Below are positions 6,019-55,233 of a stretch of DNA of 55,613 bases, one piece after another. The notes under the pieces are model-generated. The model did not search any database, was not told the DNA's origin, and saw only the letters and a list, made by a program, of their open reading frames with translations. The position numbers and the translations under genes are program-made. Origin of the DNA: Neolecta irregularis DAH-3 (taxonomy: Eukaryota). Location: the NCBI GenBank assembly GCA_001929475.1, contig LXFE01000132.1, positions 1 through 55,613 on the forward strand. The letters are read 5' to 3'. Each line of letters starts with the position of its first letter. Positions within the stretch are counted from its first letter, which is position 1.

Positions 6019-7066
6019 ATGAAAGAGGACGATCTATATCGACAAACTTCGCAATTCAGATTATGGTCGTTCACCCCTACCGCCCTTCAAGATCTCCGCA
6101 GACGTACAAACTCTGCGGCTATCGAAAAGATTTCCGATTTAATACGTGAAGACGGGAAAGAAACATCAGGAGTCGATTTTCTCTCTTGGGAAGAAGAATT
6201 AGAGCTTGTCAATTTTTATGTAAAGAAGATGAATGACATTGCAGGTGTATTTAAGCTGCCGTCGTCTATAAAGGTATACTTTGTATACTTTAATCCACTT
6301 ACCTTTGGCCACCGCTACTACCTTTTTGAAAAGATTTTACCTGCATAACTCTGTCATGGATCATCATCCAAAAACCATCATGTTTGACAAACATCATATA
6401 TACGGCTGATACATCAGGCTCACATGTCTATTTCTCTGCACCAAGACCGAAAATTACTACATTCCTCTCGAGAAATTTGTTTCTACGATACCAAAGACGA
6501 CTGTGGACGATATTATTCCCCTCGAGCTACCGGTATCTCAGAGTTTAAAGTTTTGCTTCTCTGTACATCACCCTTATCGCCCCCTGCACGGGTTTTACCT
6601 CGATATGCAAGCAGTTTTACCAAACTATGAAAAAGATCGGTTGGGTAAATTGATTGGTGATGCGCGCAATGAAATTGGAGACTCTCTATACGGAGATTCC
6701 ATGTTTTTATATACCCCCTCACAGATATCACTGGCATGTCTAAGGAGTATCAACAGCTCAATTATCCAATTATATATCCAACAAAAAATCACAGACGATG
6801 CTCTACGCGAGAGATTGCTGAATGAAATTAGTGCAGCGCAAAAGCTTATCAAAGACTTTAAATTTCCGAGCAAGGAACGAGTAGTAGAGATTGATAAAAA
6901 GCGGTATTATTGCCAGAACCCCGAACGGAATCCCAACAGCCAGGTATTCAAGAAACGCAAGCAGCAGGAAGAAAATGGCGAACTAGAAAAAGCCAACAAG
7001 AAAGCGAAAATGGCAGAACAGCGTGAGAAAGAGGCTGAAAGTTTTCTTGGACCATGTGTAAAGTAG
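6019..7066 (+). CDS. CCL1: Cyclin H (TFIIH/CAK cyclin, Ccl1/Mcs2); first intron non-canonical GT-TG
   Basis: MKEDDLYRQTSQFRLWSF, ATATTFLKRFYL, LTCLFLCTKTEN, VHHPYRPLHGF, LYTPSQISLA. Confidence 0.93.
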
Positions 7067-7153: not shown

Positions 7154-9102
7154 ATGCCTCTCGTATCTCGCCCTAGTTATTACAGACTGACCTAGGATGG
7201 CAATGAAGATGATCTCAAAAAGTACTTTCCTACCGCCTTTGGGAAGCAGACTACTGCTCAGAATCTCGAACGCAAGTTTAACGAAACTAAACGATCGGTC
7301 AACGTTGTAAAAAAGCAGGTTCATACATTGTCAATCTCACAGCGCTGCTAACTATCCAGAATAATAAAAACAAAGTCGACAGTGAAGATTATGAAATAAA
7401 TAGCGAATCCTTGCCGAAACCAGGGTTCTCGTCATCCGAAGATGAGGACGATGATCTCCCAATTACTCACGAACTTGCTCTATTGTCACATACCCGAGCC
7501 GTTAGCACTCTGACCCTCGATCCGTCTGGTTCTCGTTTACTGAGCGGTGGCCATGATTTTTGCATGAAGTTTTGGGATTTTGCTGGAATGTCATCGAGTG
7601 CACGAGCTTTTCGATCCCTCGACCCTATACCAAACCATAGACTGCATCATATCCAGTATTCAGTCTCGGGCGATTCGGTTTTAATAATCGGCGGTAATTC
7701 GCAACCGAAAATTGTCGATAGGGAAGGCACAGAACTTGCCGAATATATCCGCGGTGACATGTATCTCAGGGATTTGCGGAATACTGAGTACGTTTTTAAA
7801 TATCCTCTGCTAATACAATAGTGGTCACGTCGCTGAAACTACTCACGGCGCATGGAACCCTATTGATCGCCAAACATTCATAACGTCGTCGGTGGACAGT
7901 ACAATTCGGTGGTTCCGTACATAAAAATCAGGACTAACTCGACAGAATATGGGACGTTAACCGAAAATCAAAGAATTCTTCAGTAATATTCTTGTCCTCG
8001 AAGCAGAAAGGACAAAAGACTGAAGTGACTACCTGCGCATATTCCCCCGACGGCAATACAATCGCTGCAGCTGGAAAAGATGGAACACTTAATTTGTGGA
8101 ATGCGAATGGGCCTTTCCACAGACCTACTTTCGGCGTTGTTAATGGACACACAGCTGGATCGCATACGAGTAGCGTGCTCTTTAGTCGAGATGGCAGGAT
8201 GCTTGTTAGTCGTGGAGGTGATGATACGGTCAAACGTAAAAATACAAAATTTATTGTACTGACCCGGCAGTATGGGACACGAGAAATTTCACCAAGGCTG
8301 TCCGATCGAAAGAAGGCCTTGACAATGCATTCTCAGAAACTAATATTGTCTATTCTCCTGATCAGCAATACCTTTGTTCTGGTATCAGTGTATCTCCGGA
8401 ATCAGATGGAACAGGCAGCCTCATGGTCCTCGATGCGATGACATTGGAGACTGTTCAACAAGTTCCTATAGAAAAGGCGAGTGTTATCAGCTGTCTATGG
8501 CATGGCAAGTTGAACCAGGTATGTCTCTTTCCCTAAATGTTTGTGACCAAAAGATAATTATTGGATCATCAAACGGTAAAATCACTGTACTGTATTCCCC
8601 AGAACTCTCAACAAACGGAGCAAAACTCGCTCTTTCAAAAACTCGGAAAAAACGGTTCATCGATGATGATGCATCACTTACTACTGATATCGATGGTTCA
8701 ACACTTGTCAACGTTCTTCCCAGCGGTAATCCTGATCCAACAGATTCTACACAGGTCTCTTCCCGACGACTGGCGAACATGAATCGGAAAGATCCCATCA
8801 AAAGCAAAAAACCAGACCTTCCTTTTGGAGGTTTGTGGGGTACTGGCGGTCTTTATGGCAAAAAACGCGAGCCTGAAAAGATCAGTGAAAATCTTGAAAG
8901 CATGAGAGACGAAGATCCCAGAGTGGCTTTGCTCAAATATGACGAACTTTCAAAAAATGATCCAATGTTCACGAGAGGTATATATCAGCGTGAGAGCACG
9001 GCTAATTGCGCAGCGTATCAGAAAACACAACCAGTGCCGGTATTTGGTGAATTTGAGGAAGAAGAGGAACATCAGGATAAGAAGTTGAAGCGCTACCAGT
9101 AG
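7154..9102 (+). CDS. WD repeat protein WDR70/GAD-1 homologue (7 introns)
   Basis: FPTAFGKQ, KFWDFAGM, GDMYLRDLRNT, SRGGDDTVKLWD, DEDPRVALLKY, AYQKTQP. Confidence 0.9.
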
Positions 9103-13113: not shown

Positions 13114-15360
<2,247 letters not shown>

Positions 15361-18893: not shown

Positions 18894-20397
18894 CTATAGA
18901 TATAGACCCTCTGGACTTGCTTCTTGCTTAGTCTTCAACACACGGTCTCGCGCCTTCCGAAAGTCATCTGCTGTCACTTTCATCCGTCGTTCCCGCAACG
19001 CCATCATTCCTGCTTCGGTACACATACTCTTAATGTCTGCACCAGAGAGTTCGTCTTTCGAAGCAATGAATTCTTCAGTGTCGACGTCGTCGCTCAACGA
19101 CATCTTGGCTGTGTGTATTGTAAAGATCTTGCGCTTTGTGTGCTCTAATCGTCAGCAATCATCCTTCAGGTCCCCTACGATCTGGATTCTCGAATAGGAT
19201 CTTCCGGTCAATCCGTCCAGGCCGTATAAGAGCTGGGTCAAGGTCGGATATACGATTGGTAGCCATAATGACCTTGACATCCCCTCTTGTATCAAATCCA
19301 TCAAGCTGGTTGAGTAATTCCAAAAGCGTTCTTTGGATTTCCCGCTCAGCACCTGACGACGAATCGTAACGTTTACTACCAATAGCATCAATCTCGTCAA
19401 TGAATACAATGCTAGGTGCATGTTCTTCAGCAACACCTAAAGTCAATTCATAGCTCCCATAAATAGCATACGAAATAATTCTCGAACAAGTTTTGGCCCG
19501 TCACCAAGGTACTTTTGGATCAACTCTGACCCAACAACCCGTAGAAATGTGGCGCTCGTCTGATTTGCAACTGCTTTAGCGAGCAACGTCTTTCCAGTTC
19601 CAGGTGCTCCATAGAGAATGACTCCCTTGGGAGGCCGAATGCCCATCTCTTCGTACAATTCGGGATGCGTCAATGGTAATTCCACAGATTCTTTGATTTC
19701 TTGAATTTGCGCTTCAAGACCTCCGATATCGGCATATGATTCTGTCGGCGCTTTCTCAAGTTTCATGACTGAAACCATTGGATCCACGTCGTCGTTCAAT
19801 ACACCAACCACCGAGATTGACTGGGCAGTCAGTAACTGGAGTAAACGTTACAACCTTGTGATGCAAAAGCACGGAACATCCAGGTTCGAGAAGGTCCTTG
19901 TCGACAAATGACATTATCCCAACATAATACTCGGGTCCATTCGTAGAAGACACAATGGCATGGTCGTCATCGATAATCTCTTCCAAAGTTCCAACTCCCA
20001 TAGGCGAACCACGGAGCTTGTCAACTCTAGATTGTTCCTGCTGTGTCTTCTCGTCCTGAGGCTTCAGCCGTTCTTGATTTTGCACGAATTCTTCCTCCAG
20101 CAACAGATAATCTTTGATTCGCTCCAGTTTGAGTAGCTTGAGTTTACACCGAGTGTTTGGGTACACTGCAGGGAGTTTGTTCGATGCGTCGGGGCCACGA
20201 CGTTTCTTTTTCCCTGCTCTCGGTGGTATAGGTGGTTCAAACTTGTGTTTCTCCTTCTTCAGCGGCGGGTGTTAGCACAAGACGATAGTAGGCGGTACCT
20301 TGTCCTGCTTTTCCTTGCTATCCTTGGAATGACCCTGACCAGACTGTGTATTCCCCTTTGCTAGTCAGTATACCGAGAGAAAGTCGTAGCATGCCAT
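18894..20397 (-). CDS. RPT2: 26S proteasome regulatory AAA-ATPase subunit 4 (5 introns; ATG alone in first exon followed by a GC-AG intron)
   Basis: MGNTQS N-terminus, [55 protein letters not shown]-terminus. Confidence 0.97.
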
Positions 20398-35834: not shown

Positions 35835-36001
35835 CAGTCGGACCTGGCTATAGGGAACCTCCGTACAAAATATTTCTCCTTATAACGAACCCAGCTTGTT
35901 CCCAAAATTAATTAGTATGGGTATTTTTCTACAGAATGAATCCGCCTTATAACGAATTCAACACCCTTGAACGCCACATTCGTTATAAGCAGGTCTGACT
36001 T
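35835..36001. mobile_element. MITE, Tc1/mariner (pogo/Tigger-like) copy 1
   Basis: Ends cagtcggacctggctata... and ...ttcgttataagcaggtctgact form imperfect TIRs; highly similar to copy 2. Confidence 0.8.
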
Positions 36002-36831
36002 TAGCGGCGGAAGACCATTAGCAATGCGGGAGACCACAAGAAGTAACCTATGTCCAGATGGGGGCATTGGTGGGCCGCACAGCCAATTGCGTTGAAGATG
36101 AAACCAATGCGGAGCAAATTGAGTGCCCATAGGATTATATAAGAACCGCCTAGCCTGATTAGCAGACTAGGCTTTAGCCACATAATAATATACATGGTTA
36201 CTTCTCAAAGCAACCATCGAATACCAAATTATCCAGCCTAAGTCTACTCGAGCCAACAGTCCAGACACGAAGCTCACAAAAAGATTTACTCCTATATAGG
36301 CGCACCGAGTTCTGTACCACGACCCGTCGTTTGTATTTCCATCGGTGCACTCTCTTCCTCTTCTGCTGAAGCTTTACAACGCGCTCTTCTGGCCTTTTTG
36401 ACCAAATCCGATGATTTTGCAAAATTTGCGTCTGTAATTTAGCATGTCCGGCACTGGAATCGGGCCCGCACTTCCCATGACTTCATCTACAGTCACACCA
36501 CTTTCTTTGAGCCTCTGAATGGTCTGAAAGTAAGCAGAGGGGTATTTAAAAGAGGACAGATACATAATCTCTATTGCGTGCAATTTTATTCATCTTTTTT
36601 TTGCTGTTCACCTTTCCGAAGAATACACCCGACGACGCCCTGCGAAGCTGCGGGTTACATAATTTTGCCTTCTTCTTATTCCTGGCTTCTTTCCTGAGAC
36701 AAGATCTTGCACGGTTGGGAGCCATTATAGAGGGCATGTTCGGTTAGGAGGTTTGGAAAAGATTGGTGCAGCCAATTCGTGATTACAACAACGTCCTCGA
36801 CTTATCTCTTGAGAACAAATCATTGCACGTA

Positions 36832-37004
36832 CAGTTGAACCTGCCTATAGGGAACCTCCGTACAACGAATTTCCCATTATAACGAACCCAGTTGGTTTCC
36901 AAAATAATTAGTATGAGTTATTTTTCTATCGTGATATAAAGAATCCGCCTTATAACGAATTTAACACCCTTGAACGCCACATTCGTTATAAGCAGGTTCG
37001 ACTA
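36832..37004. mobile_element. MITE, Tc1/mariner (pogo/Tigger-like) copy 2
   Basis: TA|cagttgaacctgcctata ... tataagcaggttcgacta|TA; TA flanks; internal ttataacgaa sub-repeats. Confidence 0.85.
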
Positions 37005-37405
37005 TAATAAATTGAATAGAAAATTTCTTATCAAATTATCAATGTCTTATTTCTGTACCGGACGATGTTATCTACAAATTAAGGAACCCCATAAAACTTT
37101 ATATTTGCGCAGAATAAAATCTGATTATCACATGTGAATATTCTGACTATGTAGCCAGGTATATTCCAAATGAACCTACTTTCTAAGAGGAATCATTCAC
37201 TAGAGATAGCATAAAACCAACGTTGAAAATCTTTTGTTGCAGATCTTTAAATGGCGAATCTTTTGTGCATGACAGTATACAAGTATCCCAAATACACTTA
37301 GTCCACCGCATCAACCAGCAAAAGCATGAACAAATAAATAATCAATCGAACAGAAACACATACAAACGGGAAACGCCGAATAAAAGAGAGTAAAGCCATC
37401 CCTGT

Positions 37406-39453: not shown

Positions 39454-40728
39454 GTGTTGCTGCAGCTGCTGTTGATGATGATTATGAGATTGATAATAAA
39501 AATTTTGGGGAATGGAGGAGGATGTGTGGAGTATTGGGATTTGGGGGTGGGATTGCCAGGAGTGATTCAACATGGGCGGTTCTGATTTTCGATGGGCTGA
39601 CGTATTGAAGGGATTTCCAGCGAGATCTTGGACGGGGAACGACGGGGTGACTGAATTGCTTCGAGATGGCGGACGAATTATTGTTCCAGCGGAATGGTGA
39701 TCCGGATATGTTGGAGAAGGAGCGTCTTCATCACCATTGGGTGACATGGATGCAGTACTCGCAACATATACTTTAGTCGACGGATCTAGACTCAGCACAC
39801 TCGAGAAAAAAGATTTACCGATTTCTCCTATACGCAGCCGTTCTTCTTCGCGGGCTACACGGTATATTTCTCGCAGCAGATTGGTCTTGTCTGGGGGAAT
39901 GTAGGCTGCTACTTCTGCGGTGGCGAGTTCGAGTCTATTCACAGGGACTTTTCCGCAGCGGAGCATTCTCAGGAGCAGCGAGATGCGTTCTGGTTTCATG
40001 AGATGGTCTGGTTCCTTGTGCCGGACATGTTCGGGCCACCAGTCTGGTCTCGACTCTTCGCCGCGGTTGTATGGGTAGCGAGTCTGTTTTTTGGGTTCGA
40101 TGATCTTTATCCATGCTTTTGCTACAATTTTGCACACCATCTGCTGGAGCTGGCGGAAGCGGGTTTCAAGAAACGCAGAAACCTGAGGGGTTGAACCGAT
40201 AATCAGGGGTTTGTATTCGGTGAAGCTTGAGGGCGACAAGAGGGCTGTTTCGAGATGAAGGGGCAGGCGGTCTGTGGAGAGCGTGATTTGCGAGGGCATG
40301 CTAAACGATCTATGCAATTCTGGTGGGGCAGGCGGAAGCAGAGCGAGGACTGGCGCATTTGGTGTTGCTTCGCTTTTTTTAACCTGGTCTTCGGGTTCGA
40401 GCTCGTCGTCTATATTATCGCGGTCTGCAGCGGCGTCCTGGAAGAATTTGCGATCAGCATGGCCGTCATGGGCGGCAGTAGCAACCAGGGATTTTGCGTC
40501 GTGCAGCACTTTTGGGCCGAACCAGTCTGTGAGCTTTGCCTGGAAGACGTCGCTGGCATAGGATTCGCTTTCGCCGCGGGAGTTTACCCAGAGAATGGCG
40601 AAATGGGAGCCGTTGATGTACGACGCCTTGCCGAGCGCCTTGAGGATCTGGTCGCGCTTGTTTTTAAAGTGCCGGTGCTGTTTTGAGGGGGAGGAATACG
40701 GTTCGACTCTGACGGGGATGCGAGGCAT
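39010..40728 (-). CDS. DUF2841/Ydr124w-like protein with poly-Q/H tract (probable 33-nt in-frame intron ~39788-39820)
   Basis: FRQLQQMVCKIVAKAWIKIIEPKKQTRYPY..PDWWP..VRHKEPDHLMKPERI. Confidence 0.85.
39370..39485 (-). repeat. CAA/CAG/CAT coding microsatellite (poly-Q/QH)
   Basis: tgt/tgc/tga triplet runs on the + strand. Confidence 0.9.
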
Positions 40729-46134: not shown

Positions 46135-47430
46135 ATGCTTCGCCTTCTTTGCCGCCGATCTTGCATAACTTTAACAAAGTCGTGCGTCTGTATAAAGAGA
46201 CAGTTTAGCATTCTTGGAATCGAAGTAGGCCCTATTATCGGTTATTGCTGATTTGTTTGGACTAGCTGCGATGACACCAGCGTGTGTCTTTTAGATATTC
46301 AGAAAGGGAAACCACCGGAAATCCTCGAGCATGTTGTACATAGATCTTTGGACCTGCACGAGCCGTATGGCGGAATACATCCAAGTGTTGCGATGGTGAG
46401 GAGCTAGATCACATAAACCACTGACAATAATACAGACTTCACATAATACAAATCTGGCGCCAATACTTTACGATATCGTTCATCAATATATAAACAAGGA
46501 CGGGCGAAGAATAGATTTGGTTGCTGTAACCAGAGGGCCGGGTTTACCTGGAAGTCTATCCTCGGGATTGTCAACAGCAAAAGGATTGTCGATTGGTCTC
46601 GATACAAATTTCATTGCCGTACATCATATGGTAGGGAACCATTTGCCATTGCTAATAGTGAGCAAGCTCACGCGCTCACACCTCGTCTATTGTCATCTAC
46701 ACAGTCTCCAGAATTTCCATTTTTATCACTTTTATTATCTGGAGGTCACACGATGCTCGTGCTCTCAAGATCGTTGATAGATCATGAAATTATTGCATCA
46801 ACGGTTGATATCGCCGTAGGAGACTTGCTAGACAAATGTGCTCGTCATCTCGGGGTTACTTGGCAATCGAAAATGCCAGCCGCCGCTATGGAAGCTTGGT
46901 CTTCGGACGCCGAGCTTGGTGATAATCAGGACTGGGACTTTACAATACCTCTTGAAAGAAAACCAACGCATCGTTCAACGTTGGCCTTCAGTTTTTCCGG
47001 CTTAGGAAGTGCGGTTGAGAGACTTATCGTTGCTGAAATGAATGAGACAAGGAGAAAGTCACTTGCTAGAGCAATCCAATTTACCGCCTTTGAACATATC
47101 ATTAGAAAAGTCATTTTATCGCTCGAACAACATGATCTGTCGGTTTCTTCTCTTGTAGTCAGTGGAGGTGTTGCTTCCAATAAGCTACTACGATCCCATT
47201 TTCGTCAAAAGTTGGAAGAAAAAGGATTCCACAATATCGAGCTTGTGTTTCCACCGGTTGAGTTTTGCACGGACAATGCAGCTATGATCGCATGGGCTGG
47301 TTACGAAATGTACCAAGCAGGATATAAAAGCGAGCTTTCCGCGCTTACATTGCCTAAATGGCCGTTAAATGAGATGATGGATGTCAAAGGATGGATTCAT
47401 CAGAGTACATTACCGCCATTATGTAATTAG
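46135..47430 (+). CDS. QRI7: Mitochondrial tRNA N6-adenosine threonylcarbamoyltransferase (Qri7/OSGEPL1); first intron GT-GG
   Basis: LGIETSCDDT, YGGIHP, VTRGPG, VHHMQAHALT, LSGGHT, VVSGGVASN, CTDNAAMIAW. Confidence 0.95.
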
Positions 47431-49342: not shown

Positions 49343-50599
49343 GGTGTGGGCTGCAGCAAATGCCAGACTCGGATTTCCAACACTCGCCTTACTCCACTCG
49401 TGACGTATTTGACCGGGATATGGTTTATACATCGATATACTCCCAAACTGTTCTATTCTATAACCTTGATTATACCGCACGAATTCTGCGACAGGCACAA
49501 TTTATTTTCGGGAATCCGTCCTGCATTTTTCCCAGTCTTCACTAGAACTTGGTTGAATACACCTGGTTGCAATACATGTGCTCGAACGCCAAAAACAGCA
49601 TGGAAAGTTCAGTTTGCAAAATCTCTAAAGAAATGATTTGATAGTCATTCGAACACTTTACACCCTTGTTGAGTTGCAAAATACAGCAATATCTTTACGC
49701 AGTCGCTTGCTGTTACTCTATTTGAAGTATTTCTATAATCAGACTGTTTGGCTTTTGGAAATATGAGAGCACGCAAAGATATACGAACACTACAGCCTGC
49801 CGAATATCAATTGGCTTTTCTAGTTGTAATTGCATCTTTTCCCCTTGCGTCAGGGTGAAATGCAGTTAGTTATTATCTTTTTCCGATTTTTCATTCCATA
49901 TCCTCTTCATTGTACTACAGTAGTCTGATTGTCGTGGTGTCTGTATCATCAGCTGTCCGAGAAATGTAAGATGACCATAAAACAAGGCTAGATGGAATTA
50001 AGTATGGTCCATTTCCTTTTCGTTCAGAGTTCACAAGCAAATATTCAGCAAAAGCTGAAACTAATTCTAAAATACTGGCAAGAACTCTACCATGGAGTAG
50101 CAGTTGTCAAAAAAATTCGAGAGATGGCGGCGCGAGATAATGGAGATCTGTTTCTGTGGTGCTCCCATCGGATGAATAAAACATTTTGTCCAAGGGTCTA
50201 CCGCTCAAAGACCACGCAATACTCAAACACGACCGGCACCAAAGTGGCTTCAAGCAAATGAACAAAGCTCAGCGATCTAATGATCAAGTGGGTGACTTTT
50301 CAGGTCCCTTGCTTCCTCCTGTATTATCAATTAAACCATACGATTCCACAGGATCATTCCGCGTCGTGTACCTGCGTAAACCTTGGAACAAACAGATGCT
50401 CTCCTTGGAAACTCCTCGTTCGATATCCCTCGGAAATTGATTAAGACCATCCGCTTTTCTTTCGACGAATATTCGAATCCACACACTCATTATAGAGATC
50501 TCTAGATCTTTCTACCCATAGCTCATCTTTCCTTTTTTTTCTCTCTCTCTTGTGTTTCATACCTTTCTCTGCTTACTTAAAGCCCAGTCTCTCTTCAGG

Positions 50600-51870
50600 A
50601 TGAAGTTTTGCATATTCTCGGCTTTGATAGTCGTTCCTCTTGCGCTTGCTTCTGCGCCTGGTTAGGACAAGGAAATTGTTCGTGGTGTGAACATTGACGG
50701 CTAGCTCATTAAGGAATACTGTTCGCTACCGACATGATATGATTTTTGATGCTAATGTTGAAGGGATGCAACGGTCAGTATATCAGCAAGCACCAACATT
50801 AACCAAGCAGAAACATTCGCCGGGGTTAATGTTGGTGTTTTACCTGACGAGTGGACGATATGCGAGAAGCTAAGTCAAACCAAGCGAGCGACGTTTCTCC
50901 AAAATCATTGGTCGACATGGTGGTTCACTGAACAAGATCTCCAGGATCTCGCTAGCACGCGAATCAATTCGTCTACTTCGTTCATCAGGCGCACTAACAA
51001 ATTAGTATTCGAATTCCTATAGGATATTGGGCATATCAACAGTATGGCTTGGATGGGGAAAGCTATAGGCTGGGCTCGATCTGCTAGCATTAAAGTCTAG
51101 ATCGATCTTCATGGTGCTCCTGGTTCACAAAACGCCTTCGACAATAGCGGCCATGCTGGTACTATGGTCTGGCAAACCGGAAGCAATGTTCAGCTCACAA
51201 TCGATGTCCTGGTCACAATTGCCAAGAAATACGGAACACCAGCATATGCCGATGTAGTTGGATGCAATTGAGTTTCTTAATATAAACCAGCTACATGGGG
51301 GTACAAATAACAATGCTGTTACCCGCAGTTTTGAAGGCTGTTGTAACGAACGATGACCTGTTGATTACAATTTACGACAATTTTCTGACTCCAGCTCCTT
51401 GGACAGATTTTCTGGGACCACCAGCCAATGGAAAACCCGGTGTTGATACTCAGATCTATCAAGTCTTTGACGCCTATCCTCAACCTCTCGATATGGATGG
51501 ACACATCTGTAGTCAGGTCAATGAACTTCAGTCTCCCAATAATTAGTCTCCGGTGGAGATTGGTCAGCAGATCGTTCCATTCGCGCTAACACAGACGGTT
51601 CGAATTTTGCTGGAACTTCAGAATTAAGAAATTGTAATGGTCAATGTTAATGTAGCGAATCCGGAGCTCCTTGGTCCCCCGCTCTTGTCAGCCAAATTCT
51701 AATGTTCGTGGAAGCACAATTTGATACATGGGAGAAAGCAAGCTCTGGTTGGTTCTTTGTGGCGTTCAAGACAGAAGACAAACCTGCATAGGACTCCACG
51801 AAAGGCACTCAGAATGACTGGATTCCTCAACCACTTGATTCCCATAAATATTCTGGTCAGTGCAGATTTA
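50600..51870 (+). pseudogene. GH5 exo-beta-1,3-glucanase (Exg1-like) pseudogene
   Basis: Signal peptide, VRGVNI(D)[49 protein letters not shown]; in-frame stops and frameshifts, including at the NEP catalytic motif. Confidence 0.88.
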
Positions 51871-52320
51871 CATTGTCTTCTATGGCTCACGTTTCAAGCT
51901 CGACCACCGGTTCTTTGACACACAACCCTTCGAGTCAACGACACGAATGCTGTCAAGTCGGCACTTGCGCCTGTGTCCCGCCATACGCCGAATAGTCTCT
52001 CGACATCAACTATAGTTCTCTCACCCATCAAACTGGCGAGATCGTGCCACTCAATCTTCCAGTGGCACCCAATCTTCTGTTCGGCCAGTTCACCAAGGAT
52101 GTCATTGTTCAGGGAAGCGGCTCAACAGCAACACCCAGTTTTCCTAACATCACGGCAACTTTGACTGGTATTGTCTTCATCACTGAATGTTCCTATGCCA
52201 AGATAAAAGTAAATGGAAGGACAGACAGACAGACAAGGCCTAAAGGAGTGGAATGGAAGAATAGGCATCTTTCTGAAGTAAATATTGATGAATTTAGTTC
52301 GCCAGTAGTATGAAAGACTA

Positions 52321-52955: not shown

Positions 52956-55233
52956 GATTTTCCAGGAAGACGTAGTAGCTGTGCAGCAGCTTATGGATAT
53001 GGGGTTCAAAAAGGATCAAGCTGTTCGAGCTTTAAAGGTATACCAAAGTGAACCAACACGCACTACTGACGATTCTGGAAAGCAAATAATGATGTTTCAA
53101 AGGCCTTTGATTATATTTTTAGTACAGATACAGACTTTCAGGTAATTTTCATTTTTCTAAAGTCTCTAAAGGGTCAATCTGTAGGACATTGATAACATTA
53201 ATACACTACAAGACTGGCCTTCTTCCACAAACGTCGTCGATTTGACTCAAGGCTTGTCCGGTTTATGAAGATAACTGATTGATCAGGCGAGGATGAAGAC
53301 ACTCGCTACGCGCGTCAATTGCAAGAAGAAGAAAATGCTAAAGGACGATCATCTGCATATAACGGCCAACAGATACGGCCACACAGTCATGAGGAAACAA
53401 AAGGCAGAAATACGACTATCTGCTCGGTTTCAAACATGCAAATAGTCCCTTATGGCCCTCGAGAATCCACACCAATCGTCGAGATATACAATGAGCCACC
53501 ACCCCATGAACGCATTCGCCAGCACGGAGCGTATGAGCATTCTAGGAAGCGGTCTTTTAACCCAAGGTCTGTGGTTATTCGCCCAAATTCAAGGTCTCAG
53601 ACAGACCGTAATGTCCTGTCGCCACTTATTCAAATTCTCTATACCATCCCACTATTTCGATCAGTTGTGCTATCCTTAAATCTTGTGTCTGAGCTGGAAG
53701 ACAGAGTGAAACTTCTTTTGGAAGAAGACGAACTTGATCAAGCGGATGATCGTAGTACTTTTCCGCTATGTAGTTCTCGCTTAATATTAGCTCATGCGAC
53801 CCAAGAACTCGTACTTGAATGGGTTCTTGCTGCTCTTCAGTATACCTTTGCGTCACTGGAACTTGGTAATCGTGCCTATGTTTCGGGCGAACCAATCCAA
53901 AAAGCCTTCTCCCTCTTCTCAATGACACAGAATGCTCCTTGTGGCGGAGGCGATTCAAGTATCAACGAACGATATTGATATGCTAATCTGAAAGCTATCA
54001 TAAATTTCTCTTCATTCTGGGACCAGCTTATGCGTACGTCTATAGACAGCAGCTGGTTTTCAGCTTCCCCGAGATACTTTAAGGGTATTTCTGTTGCTCA
54101 AATCGAACTCCTGGACAACATCAAAGGGTACATTTTGGGCATAACTTGCAACACTTAATACTCAATAGCTCATTATTCTCGACCCTAGTAACGCTACCGA
54201 ACAACCCAACATACGCCTACTTTGATATATCTGTTCGGTCGATTTCCGATGCATCAACCACACTTTACGACTACCTCGACAACATCGTTGGGAGCAAAAT
54301 CAGGGAAGGGGTCTATCCAGTTTCTTTTGCGCCCATTCTTATCATTGTTTTTCACAGTGCCGGCATTGGCACTGGAGTGTCATTGCCAGCAGAGATTGAC
54401 CTCGGCCGTTATTCCAAGGAAATGAGCAAGGTGATGGTAGAACGGTTGAAAAAAGCAGACAGTGTCCAGGCTCGTATTCCCGAATGTCAGGCAGATATTG
54501 ACAAACTTTCTTGGTTCAAGGTTTATAGTCTCATCTTCTAAGTTGGCAGCTAACAGCCTCAGACCTATTCAATTGCAGAATTATTAGCTGCTTCTCAAGC
54601 CTTTTTCAAATCTCATCCCCATTGTCACGAAAGTGATGAAAATCCTCTACCAGAAGACGGAGCTCCTATACTCGATCTGACGACAAAAATTGAGAATTTA
54701 CAGCTCCAAGTTTATAACAAGTTAGCGGAACTGAAAGACAAGAAGAAGGGGTTTGAAAGTGAAATTGAAAACTTGACAGATCTATCTACATTGCAGTCTG
54801 AAAAGGAATATAGGCCAAATAAGTATCACTTAAGCGGATTTCTGAAAACCCCTTCGGATGCATATTTTGATAATGACGGAAGATGGTGGCATACTGCTTT
54901 TTCGTCGAATTTCGGGTATACCTCCGAAGCAGTCTCATTCGAAAATTCAGTTAAGCTGGCGAAAGATGATGGAGAGATCATCGCTATCTTTGCTTCCAAT
55001 GTCGCTTGTGAGAAAGAATCTTCAAATATTGCTAGTAGTTTGAGATTGAAGGTTTGTTTCAGAGCAAGAAGTATCAGTCTGATTTCTCTAAGGAACTCAT
55101 CCTGGCTGAGAACGCCAAGTTTGATGAGGAAATTACACAAAATGGTGTTGTCAAGGATCAGAATCAGACTCAGAATGATGAGCATGCTATATCGGGTCCG
55201 ATCGAAGACAATGCAGAACCTGGATCTGTATGA
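52954..55233 (+). CDS. UBA-domain protein with SIM/UIM-like motifs and degenerate USP-like region (Rup1-like), 8 introns, first GT-GG
   Basis: QQLMDMGFKKDQAVRALKKANNDVSKAFDYIF (UBA), VVDLT, ARQLQEEE, LIQILYTIPLFR, YHLSG, GRWW. Confidence 0.7.

Follow-up and report, generated by a model that had tools for sequence, protein, structure and literature searches.

A probable GT-GG intron required for full-length QRI7 in Neolecta irregularis, and a degenerate Prp18 loop in the same genome

The window analysed here is a stretch of 55,613 nucleotides of the Neolecta irregularis DAH-3 genome (the whole of contig LXFE01000132.1), in which a QRI7 gene is encoded on the plus strand. Its product carries the N-terminal IETSCD motif and the TsaD domain that place it in the QRI7/TsaD family (PF00814), and the protein itself is ordinary: like the QRI7/OSGEPL1/TsaD proteins it is a mitochondrial t6A synthase with the motif GIETSCDDT. 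Two sequencing runs from the same study were compared with the window, X1, which behaves as DNA, and X2, which yields spliced contigs. The gene is laid out as follows.

46135..46224, plus strand: QRI7 exon 1, a weakly conserved N-terminal leader, then the strand FSILGIE
46225..46260, plus strand: QRI7 intron 1, 36 nt, GT-GG, phase 0, between E30 and T31
46261..46395, plus strand: QRI7 exon 2, TSCDDT ... EPYGGIHP
46396..46435, plus strand: QRI7 intron 2, GT-AG, 40 nt, placed by depth-bin arithmetic and frame
46436..46630, plus strand: QRI7 exon 3
46631..46662, plus strand: QRI7 intron 3, GT-AG (GAG), 32 nt; an X2 piece starts at 46662
46663..47430, plus strand: QRI7 exon 4, to the stop

Removal of the three introns leaves an open reading frame of 395 aa with no internal stop, the N-terminal leader of which is likely to serve mitochondrial targeting. 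Exon 4 is 100% identical to a Neolecta irregularis database protein. Exon 2 is identical at 22-25 of 45 positions to each of nine chosen relatives, a conservation similar to that of exon 4, and gives weak matches to TsaD structures that start at residue 8 of the structures (E 0.02-0.07). The pattern IETS[C/A]D[D/E][T/S] is unbroken in 35 of 120 database matches, variant or partial in 15, and the region is absent from the other 70; no transcript-derived QRI7 protein was found among the best 120 matches listed. There is one QRI7 locus only in the genome (14.2-Mb assembly), and a metagenome search for a close relative gave 70 pattern matches, none of them confirmed. The public model of the gene (P0001, 291 aa) begins after intron 2, so that exon 1 is absent, and is also wrong at intron 3, where it lacks QAHALT...GGHT. 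Intron 3 itself bypasses a TAG located too near its branch point.

Elsewhere in the window, two similar copies of a short element lie about 1 kb apart (35840-36010 and 36840-37005) and by eye seem to have inverted ends, resembling a MITE. An exo-glucanase-like gene (50600-51870) has several in-frame stops and, also by eye, is probably a pseudogene; X2 covers this region unspliced (50493-51746).

In order to judge the signals of intron 1, we built a gene model on 740 kb, comprising the window and about 5% of the genome. All 15 joints shown by RNA were found again by the model, which had been seeded with 14 of them; it predicted 1465 introns, 1436 of them ending in AG and most of them 32-43 nt long. 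In the well-scored AG introns the AG lies 6-11 nt past the branch A in 1340 of 1390 cases, with a modal distance of 8 (408/1390); this distribution is partly self-trained, and a prior-free estimate from 678 introns also peaks at 6-11 but has a longer tail. The elements of intron 1 are listed below, with percentiles taken against the 1390 modelled AG introns.

46225..46230, plus strand: donor GTAGGC, 36th percentile of modelled donors; GTAGG starts 30 of 1436 modelled introns
46246..46252, plus strand: branch motif TGCTGAT with branch A at 46251, 97th percentile; contains the in-frame TGA
46258..46259, plus strand: competing TG acceptor, out of frame, 8 nt from the branch A; a cut there yields GIE-D-stop
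46259..46260, plus strand: GG acceptor, 9 nt from the branch A, a distance found in 223 of 1390 AG introns
46264..46265, plus strand: nearest AG, within the Thr-Ser codons, out of frame, 14 nt from the branch A

Together with a length that is common in this genome (36 nt in 188 of 1436 modelled introns), the signals of intron 1 exceed chance. An earlier note on this DNA had proposed that a 36-nt insert splits GIETSCDDT, that its in-frame TGA makes removal necessary, and that only a GG acceptor restores the motif while the nearby AG gives a frameshift and stop. All of this is confirmed by direct reading: the insert (46225-46260) runs GTAGGC...GCTGATTTGTTTGG, the TGA occupies 46249-46251 within the branch motif, and a cut at the AG yields GIE-L-R-stop. 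When all in-frame combinations of GT, GC and GA donors at 46150-46249 with G-ending acceptors were scanned, 46225-46260 alone restored GIETSCDDT, and the GG cut is thus the only route to the full-length QRI7 enzyme. The analysis adds the out-of-frame TG and two in-frame GT-AG options, 46203-46265 (63 nt) and 46225-46302 (78 nt), both of which would delete the conserved motif. In terms of distance, the GG at 9 nt falls within the range of modelled AG introns and the AG at 14 nt in its tail, since a distance of 14 occurs in 5 of 1390 introns and one of 14 or more in 18.

The donor of intron 1 and its YTRAY branch at the usual distance are those of a U2-type intron, and only the AG acceptor is missing. 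Introns of the U12 type have the donor consensus RTATCCTT and the branch consensus TCCTTAAC. A U12-type identity was rejected on reading the donor GTAGGC and the branch TGCTGAT. Read-through or editing of the TGA was likewise rejected: 12 residues would be added inside GIETSCDDT, the stop codon itself belongs to the branch motif, and no A>G changes are listed for QRI7.

The shorter of the two in-frame GT-AG options would make splicing canonical at the price of a protein without FSILGIETS. This 63-nt intron keeps the frame, uses the same branch and ends in a real AG, but it costs the protein its conserved first strand, of which 3-6 of 7 positions are identical in nine relatives and which is so under selection. 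Moreover, its donor stands at the 5th percentile, its length occurs in none of the 1436 modelled introns, and it would cause records 10 and 11 of X2 to overlap each other by 39 nt, which one would not expect of separate contigs built from 31-letter words. We regard it as very improbable.

Still less probable is that position 46259 is an A in the organism, through assembly error or strain polymorphism. The DNA comes from one study only, and a second Neolecta sequence was not found in the metagenome scan. Against this, a check of the position that the earlier note had called for came out in favour of GG: an X1 contig spanning 45634-46351 at a depth of about 440 matches exactly (0 differing letters, 0 gaps), and position 46259 has no variant entry, although X1 is possibly the source run of the assembly and so does not confirm GG independently. 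Non-AG ends also recur in other conserved genes, as described below.

Evidence that intron 1 is removed comes from a count of joints in X2, for which 15 of 35 joints are listed, all in better-covered genes and intron 1 not among them. One X2 contig (record 11) crosses the site of intron 1 and fits the window across the gene without loose ends. Its depth bins indicate six introns downstream of intron 1. Record 12 accounts for nine introns of a UBA gene, two in the next gene and one or two more in 86-87 skipped bases. With 6 joints in record 11 and 13 in record 12, the total is 19, and intron 1 is the best candidate for the 20th hidden joint. The joint count therefore favours removal of intron 1, equally for 35, 36 or 41 nt, so that it does not give the acceptor; the size cannot be derived from the depths either, because the contig begins in the same bin. 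The count depends on one uncertain bin (the 86-87 nt), which if it held a single intron would leave one extra joint unexplained either way, and it assumes no hidden joints in the paralogue contigs near 40166-40523.

The 5' part of a minus-strand gene at 40166-40523 has close paralogues elsewhere, which show up in X1 and X2 alike as variant contigs whose ends are loose. At 51745-52175 (minus strand) the X2 contig skips its 86-87 bases past the stop of a small gene, consistent with one or two 3'-UTR introns.

Every GG end comes with an NG one base upstream, and the choice between the two can be followed in the UBA gene of the same window.

53038..53078, plus strand: UBA-gene intron; the frame requires GG (41 nt), and the X2 contig takes out 40 nt (TG)

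The layout of this intron is that of QRI7 intron 1, with TG at 8, GG at 9 and AG at 13 nt from the branch. The depth of record 12 is pinned to 61.55-61.59 by five other bins, and at this depth only a skip of 83 bases (43 + 40, that is, TG) fits the UBA bin, not 84 (GG) and not 88 (AG). This shows that a BG site near the branch can outcompete an AG at 13 nt, and also that the in-frame GG is not always the acceptor used. The earlier note had called QRI7 intron 1 the cleanest single example of non-AG splicing. That description does not hold: the junction is unseen, the TG used in the UBA intron adjoins the GG here as well, and an ARG1 intron (GT-AT) and a DRS1 intron (GT-GG), both described below, are at least equally well anchored by homology.

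The UBA intron is also an argument for a recently damaged acceptor, in which an AG became GG and the intron is now either retained or cut mostly at the out-of-frame TG, with GG use minor or nil and QRI7 hypomorphic or being lost. Both TG and GG have a T at -3, so that neither is favoured there, and the TG lies at the modal distance of 8. However, QRI7 bears no sign of decay and has no second copy, the DRS1 intron offers the same TTG/TGG choice and requires GG, and Upf1, which is present, should clear frameshifted messages. A damaged acceptor of this kind is accordingly unlikely in our view, and use of GG for the functional QRI7 mRNA remains the reading that we follow.

Further introns with non-AG ends were identified in the window and in the remainder of the modelled sequence.

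L060:891-928 (G000:C2803:60891-60928), minus strand: intron of a DRS1-like DEAD helicase, ends TGG, needed for the GG motif
L104:9952-9989 (G000:C3919:29952-29989), minus strand: ARG1 intron, GT-AT, ends TAT
14714..14748, plus strand: PAK-kinase intron, GT-CG (CCG), a model pick; the joint falls between Pkinase positions 105 and 108 with no gap
L107 near 8927-8972: RSN1 GG-ending intron, TGG, anchored by Pfam numbering
L015:714-747: HOP2-like GG-ending candidate, resting on the model, a consensus or inspection by eye
L098 near 1463-1494: CDK-like GG-ending candidate, resting on the model, a consensus or inspection by eye
window 6274-6307: candidate cyclin H intron that lacks an AG close by and has an in-frame TTG 6 nt from a weak branch, resting on the model, a consensus or inspection by eye

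At the DRS1 junction 12 residues match Has1 148-159 without a gap, and the TAT end of the ARG1 intron is required by a gap-free match in which 5 residues correspond to human ASS1 146-150. For several AT-ending calls, as well as for cyclin H and HOP2, Pfam matched neither side of the joint; for the CDK-like candidate it matched the upstream side only. Five further AT-ending introns, all HAT, are picks of the model only. In a Rpt2-like gene (window 20257-20298, minus strand), intron 2 could end at a CG 9 nt or at an in-frame AG 15 nt from the branch.

When every non-AG end was given the same prior, the model made 29-36 non-AG calls, many of which are artefacts, and G-ending sites were only 8 of 36 picks, so that there is no overall enrichment in this unbiased tally. 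In seven strong non-AG cases a G was present at 6 of 14 in-frame positions and at 6 of 28 out-of-frame positions. Because the model missed QRI7 intron 1, its non-AG count is a minimum that also contains false calls. Upstream of an AG in use there is no depletion of BG sites (72/430 versus 335/1845, p 0.53), which indicates that BG is no strong competitor and that an AG wins when it is in range.

Neither GT-GG introns nor BG acceptors are new, and intron 1 is, pending its junction, a member of a rare class already described. A curated annotation of Ganoderma lingzhi lists 38 GT-GG introns (0.041%), together with 22 GT-TG, 19 GT-CG and 18 GT-AT (PMC11590231); QRI7 intron 1 is of the same dinucleotide class, and the available text of that study offers no mechanism. 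Alternative TG 3' splice sites are known in human U2 introns (Szafranski et al. 2007, PMC2374985), which share with the Neolecta cases a non-AG, G-ended U2-type acceptor and differ from QRI7, where the end is GG and the AG unusable. In Neolecta GG ends number about 5-6 in some 1465 modelled introns (approximately 0.4%), a window-biased figure with three cases anchored by a tool. This rate looks several-fold above that of Ganoderma, from small numbers and a window chosen for such introns.

A closer parallel is found in yeast. In the yeast P complex the G at -1 of the 3' splice site pairs with the donor G+1 and the A at -2 with the branch A, and the conserved loop of Prp18 buttresses positions -3 and -4 (10.1101/212811). 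Loss of Prp18 activates BG ends (AUG, ACG, UGG, UUG) and HAU ends (CAU, UAU) as well as sites closer than 10 nt to the branch (Roy et al. 2023, PMC10711555), and deletion of the loop raises the use of AUG and CAU test sites (PMC10711555). Ends of both classes, BG and HAU, are called for by homology in Neolecta (DRS1, RSN1, PAK, ARG1), without an overall enrichment in the unbiased tally. UGG is among the most-used BG sites in yeast lacking Prp18 or its loop; nearness to the branch, an upstream U-rich run and an A at exon +1 are shared with the sites of prp18 yeast, and the HAU ends (UAU, CAU) match the TAT of ARG1 (PMC10711555). There are two differences: the yeast sites are minor alternatives seen in mutants with NMD off (PMC10711555), whereas in Neolecta, a wild genome, the QRI7 protein cannot be made without the GG; and Neolecta has a Prp18, though an altered one.

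Neolecta Prp18 is encoded at a single locus by an intact reading frame of 320 aa (P0121; G000:C702, L005:1000-2320, minus strand). Its loop reads SIGHAANPIGIAIAG, compared with SIGNVAWPIGVTSV in yeast, and the loop tryptophan found in 146 of 146 homologues is N in Neolecta. Position counts were made on the 86 homologues that extend through helix 5, with 60 partial rows dropped. Among positions conserved in at least 90%, 5 of 11 in the loop differ in Neolecta (W, V, V, H, R), compared with 0 of 11 for the flanking helices (Fisher p 0.035). In yeast numbering the changes include W193N, H203K and R205K, the last two numbered by extension. There is no loop departure in 66 of the 86 homologues, and three have at least three departures, one of these being a misaligned row. 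Because the Neolecta exon itself served as query for the homologue search, the set is not biased against Neolecta-like loops. Judged from its sequence, the loop appears defective, and Prp18 absent or defective in its loop is what characterises a prp18-type state. Two downstream 'AH' positions (80% and 75% conserved) are likewise changed. Word-based searches with Neolecta Prp18 returned only itself. We found no literature linking Neolecta with Prp18, subscription papers being mostly outside the search, and passing mentions only of Neolecta introns, splice sites or spliceosome; the degenerate loop is the part that we have not found recorded previously.

Other components of the second step and of 3' splice site recognition were considered as causes and rejected. 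U2AF35 (L012) has both zinc fingers intact, according to the residue roles that we assume for them. Slu7, Fyv6 and Upf1 are each present by Pfam match, and Prp8 Q1594, U5 loop 1 and U6 ACAGAGA all look normal. Extra partial Prp8 matches on L123 and G000:C2568, beside the main one on C2538, could be fragments, pseudogenes or sequence from another organism. The U6 snRNA gene (L125:318-369, minus strand) has its own GT-AG intron directly after ACAGAGAAGATT, an arrangement similar to that of S. pombe U6.

We propose that intron 1 is an ordinary short U2-type intron with a G for A at -2, which would probably have arisen by an AG to GG transition. The spliceosome would define the intron by its donor and branch and dock the 3' end 6-11 nt past the branch A, and where no AG lies within this range a G-ended site would be taken. 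At a GG end the last G could still pair with the donor G+1, and the contact of A-2 with the branch A would be the only one lost. The GG cut would give a functional mRNA, and some transcripts, probably, would keep the intron or lose it at the TG one base before, and so be unproductive. The non-AG end would be tolerated through weakened second-step proofreading of position -2, most likely by way of the degenerate Prp18 loop. Leaving aside the step through Prp18, this explanation is probably correct. That GG is used for the functional QRI7 mRNA is likely on the grounds of frame and conservation, and we lean towards GG as the majority product of intron 1 splicing.

The role of Prp18 is a separate matter. 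The GG intron could be real and owe its end to a short branch-to-end distance and drift, with a Prp18 loop that has become dispensable and has decayed as a bystander; this competes with the Prp18 mechanism only, not with GG use. Slu7 is dispensable at short branch-to-end distances (PMC10158995; 10.1101/212811), and for Cyanidioschyzon, which lacks Prp18, noncanonical sites are not reported in the available parts of the source (PMC10158995). The classes observed in Neolecta, including GAG ends in 47 of 1390 modelled AG introns beside BG and HAU, nevertheless fit the prp18 profile, and the GG rate, with the bias already noted, points the same way. A bystander loop is a serious possibility, if somewhat short of an even chance. 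Decay of the loop as the cause of non-AG use is a tentative proposal, which follows from the correlation between the two. More tentatively again, Neolecta may be a natural prp18-loop mutant, in which second-step fidelity would be relaxed genome-wide, obligatory BG and HAU acceptors, that of QRI7 among them, would have reached fixation in conserved genes several times more often than usual, and the 3' end would be chosen mainly by branch distance if no AG is in range.

By itself, intron 1 is a modest exception of a known sort, and one practical consequence is that public Neolecta gene models, such as that of QRI7, are truncated or wrong at such introns. Few features of spliceosomal introns are as fixed as the AG rule, and the part played in it by the Prp18 loop is known, as far as the literature shows, from laboratory mutants. 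If the proposal is true, a wild genome with a decayed loop and obligatory non-AG introns would permit a direct test by loop swap, and it would show a splice-site consensus drifting after a proofreading part has weakened.
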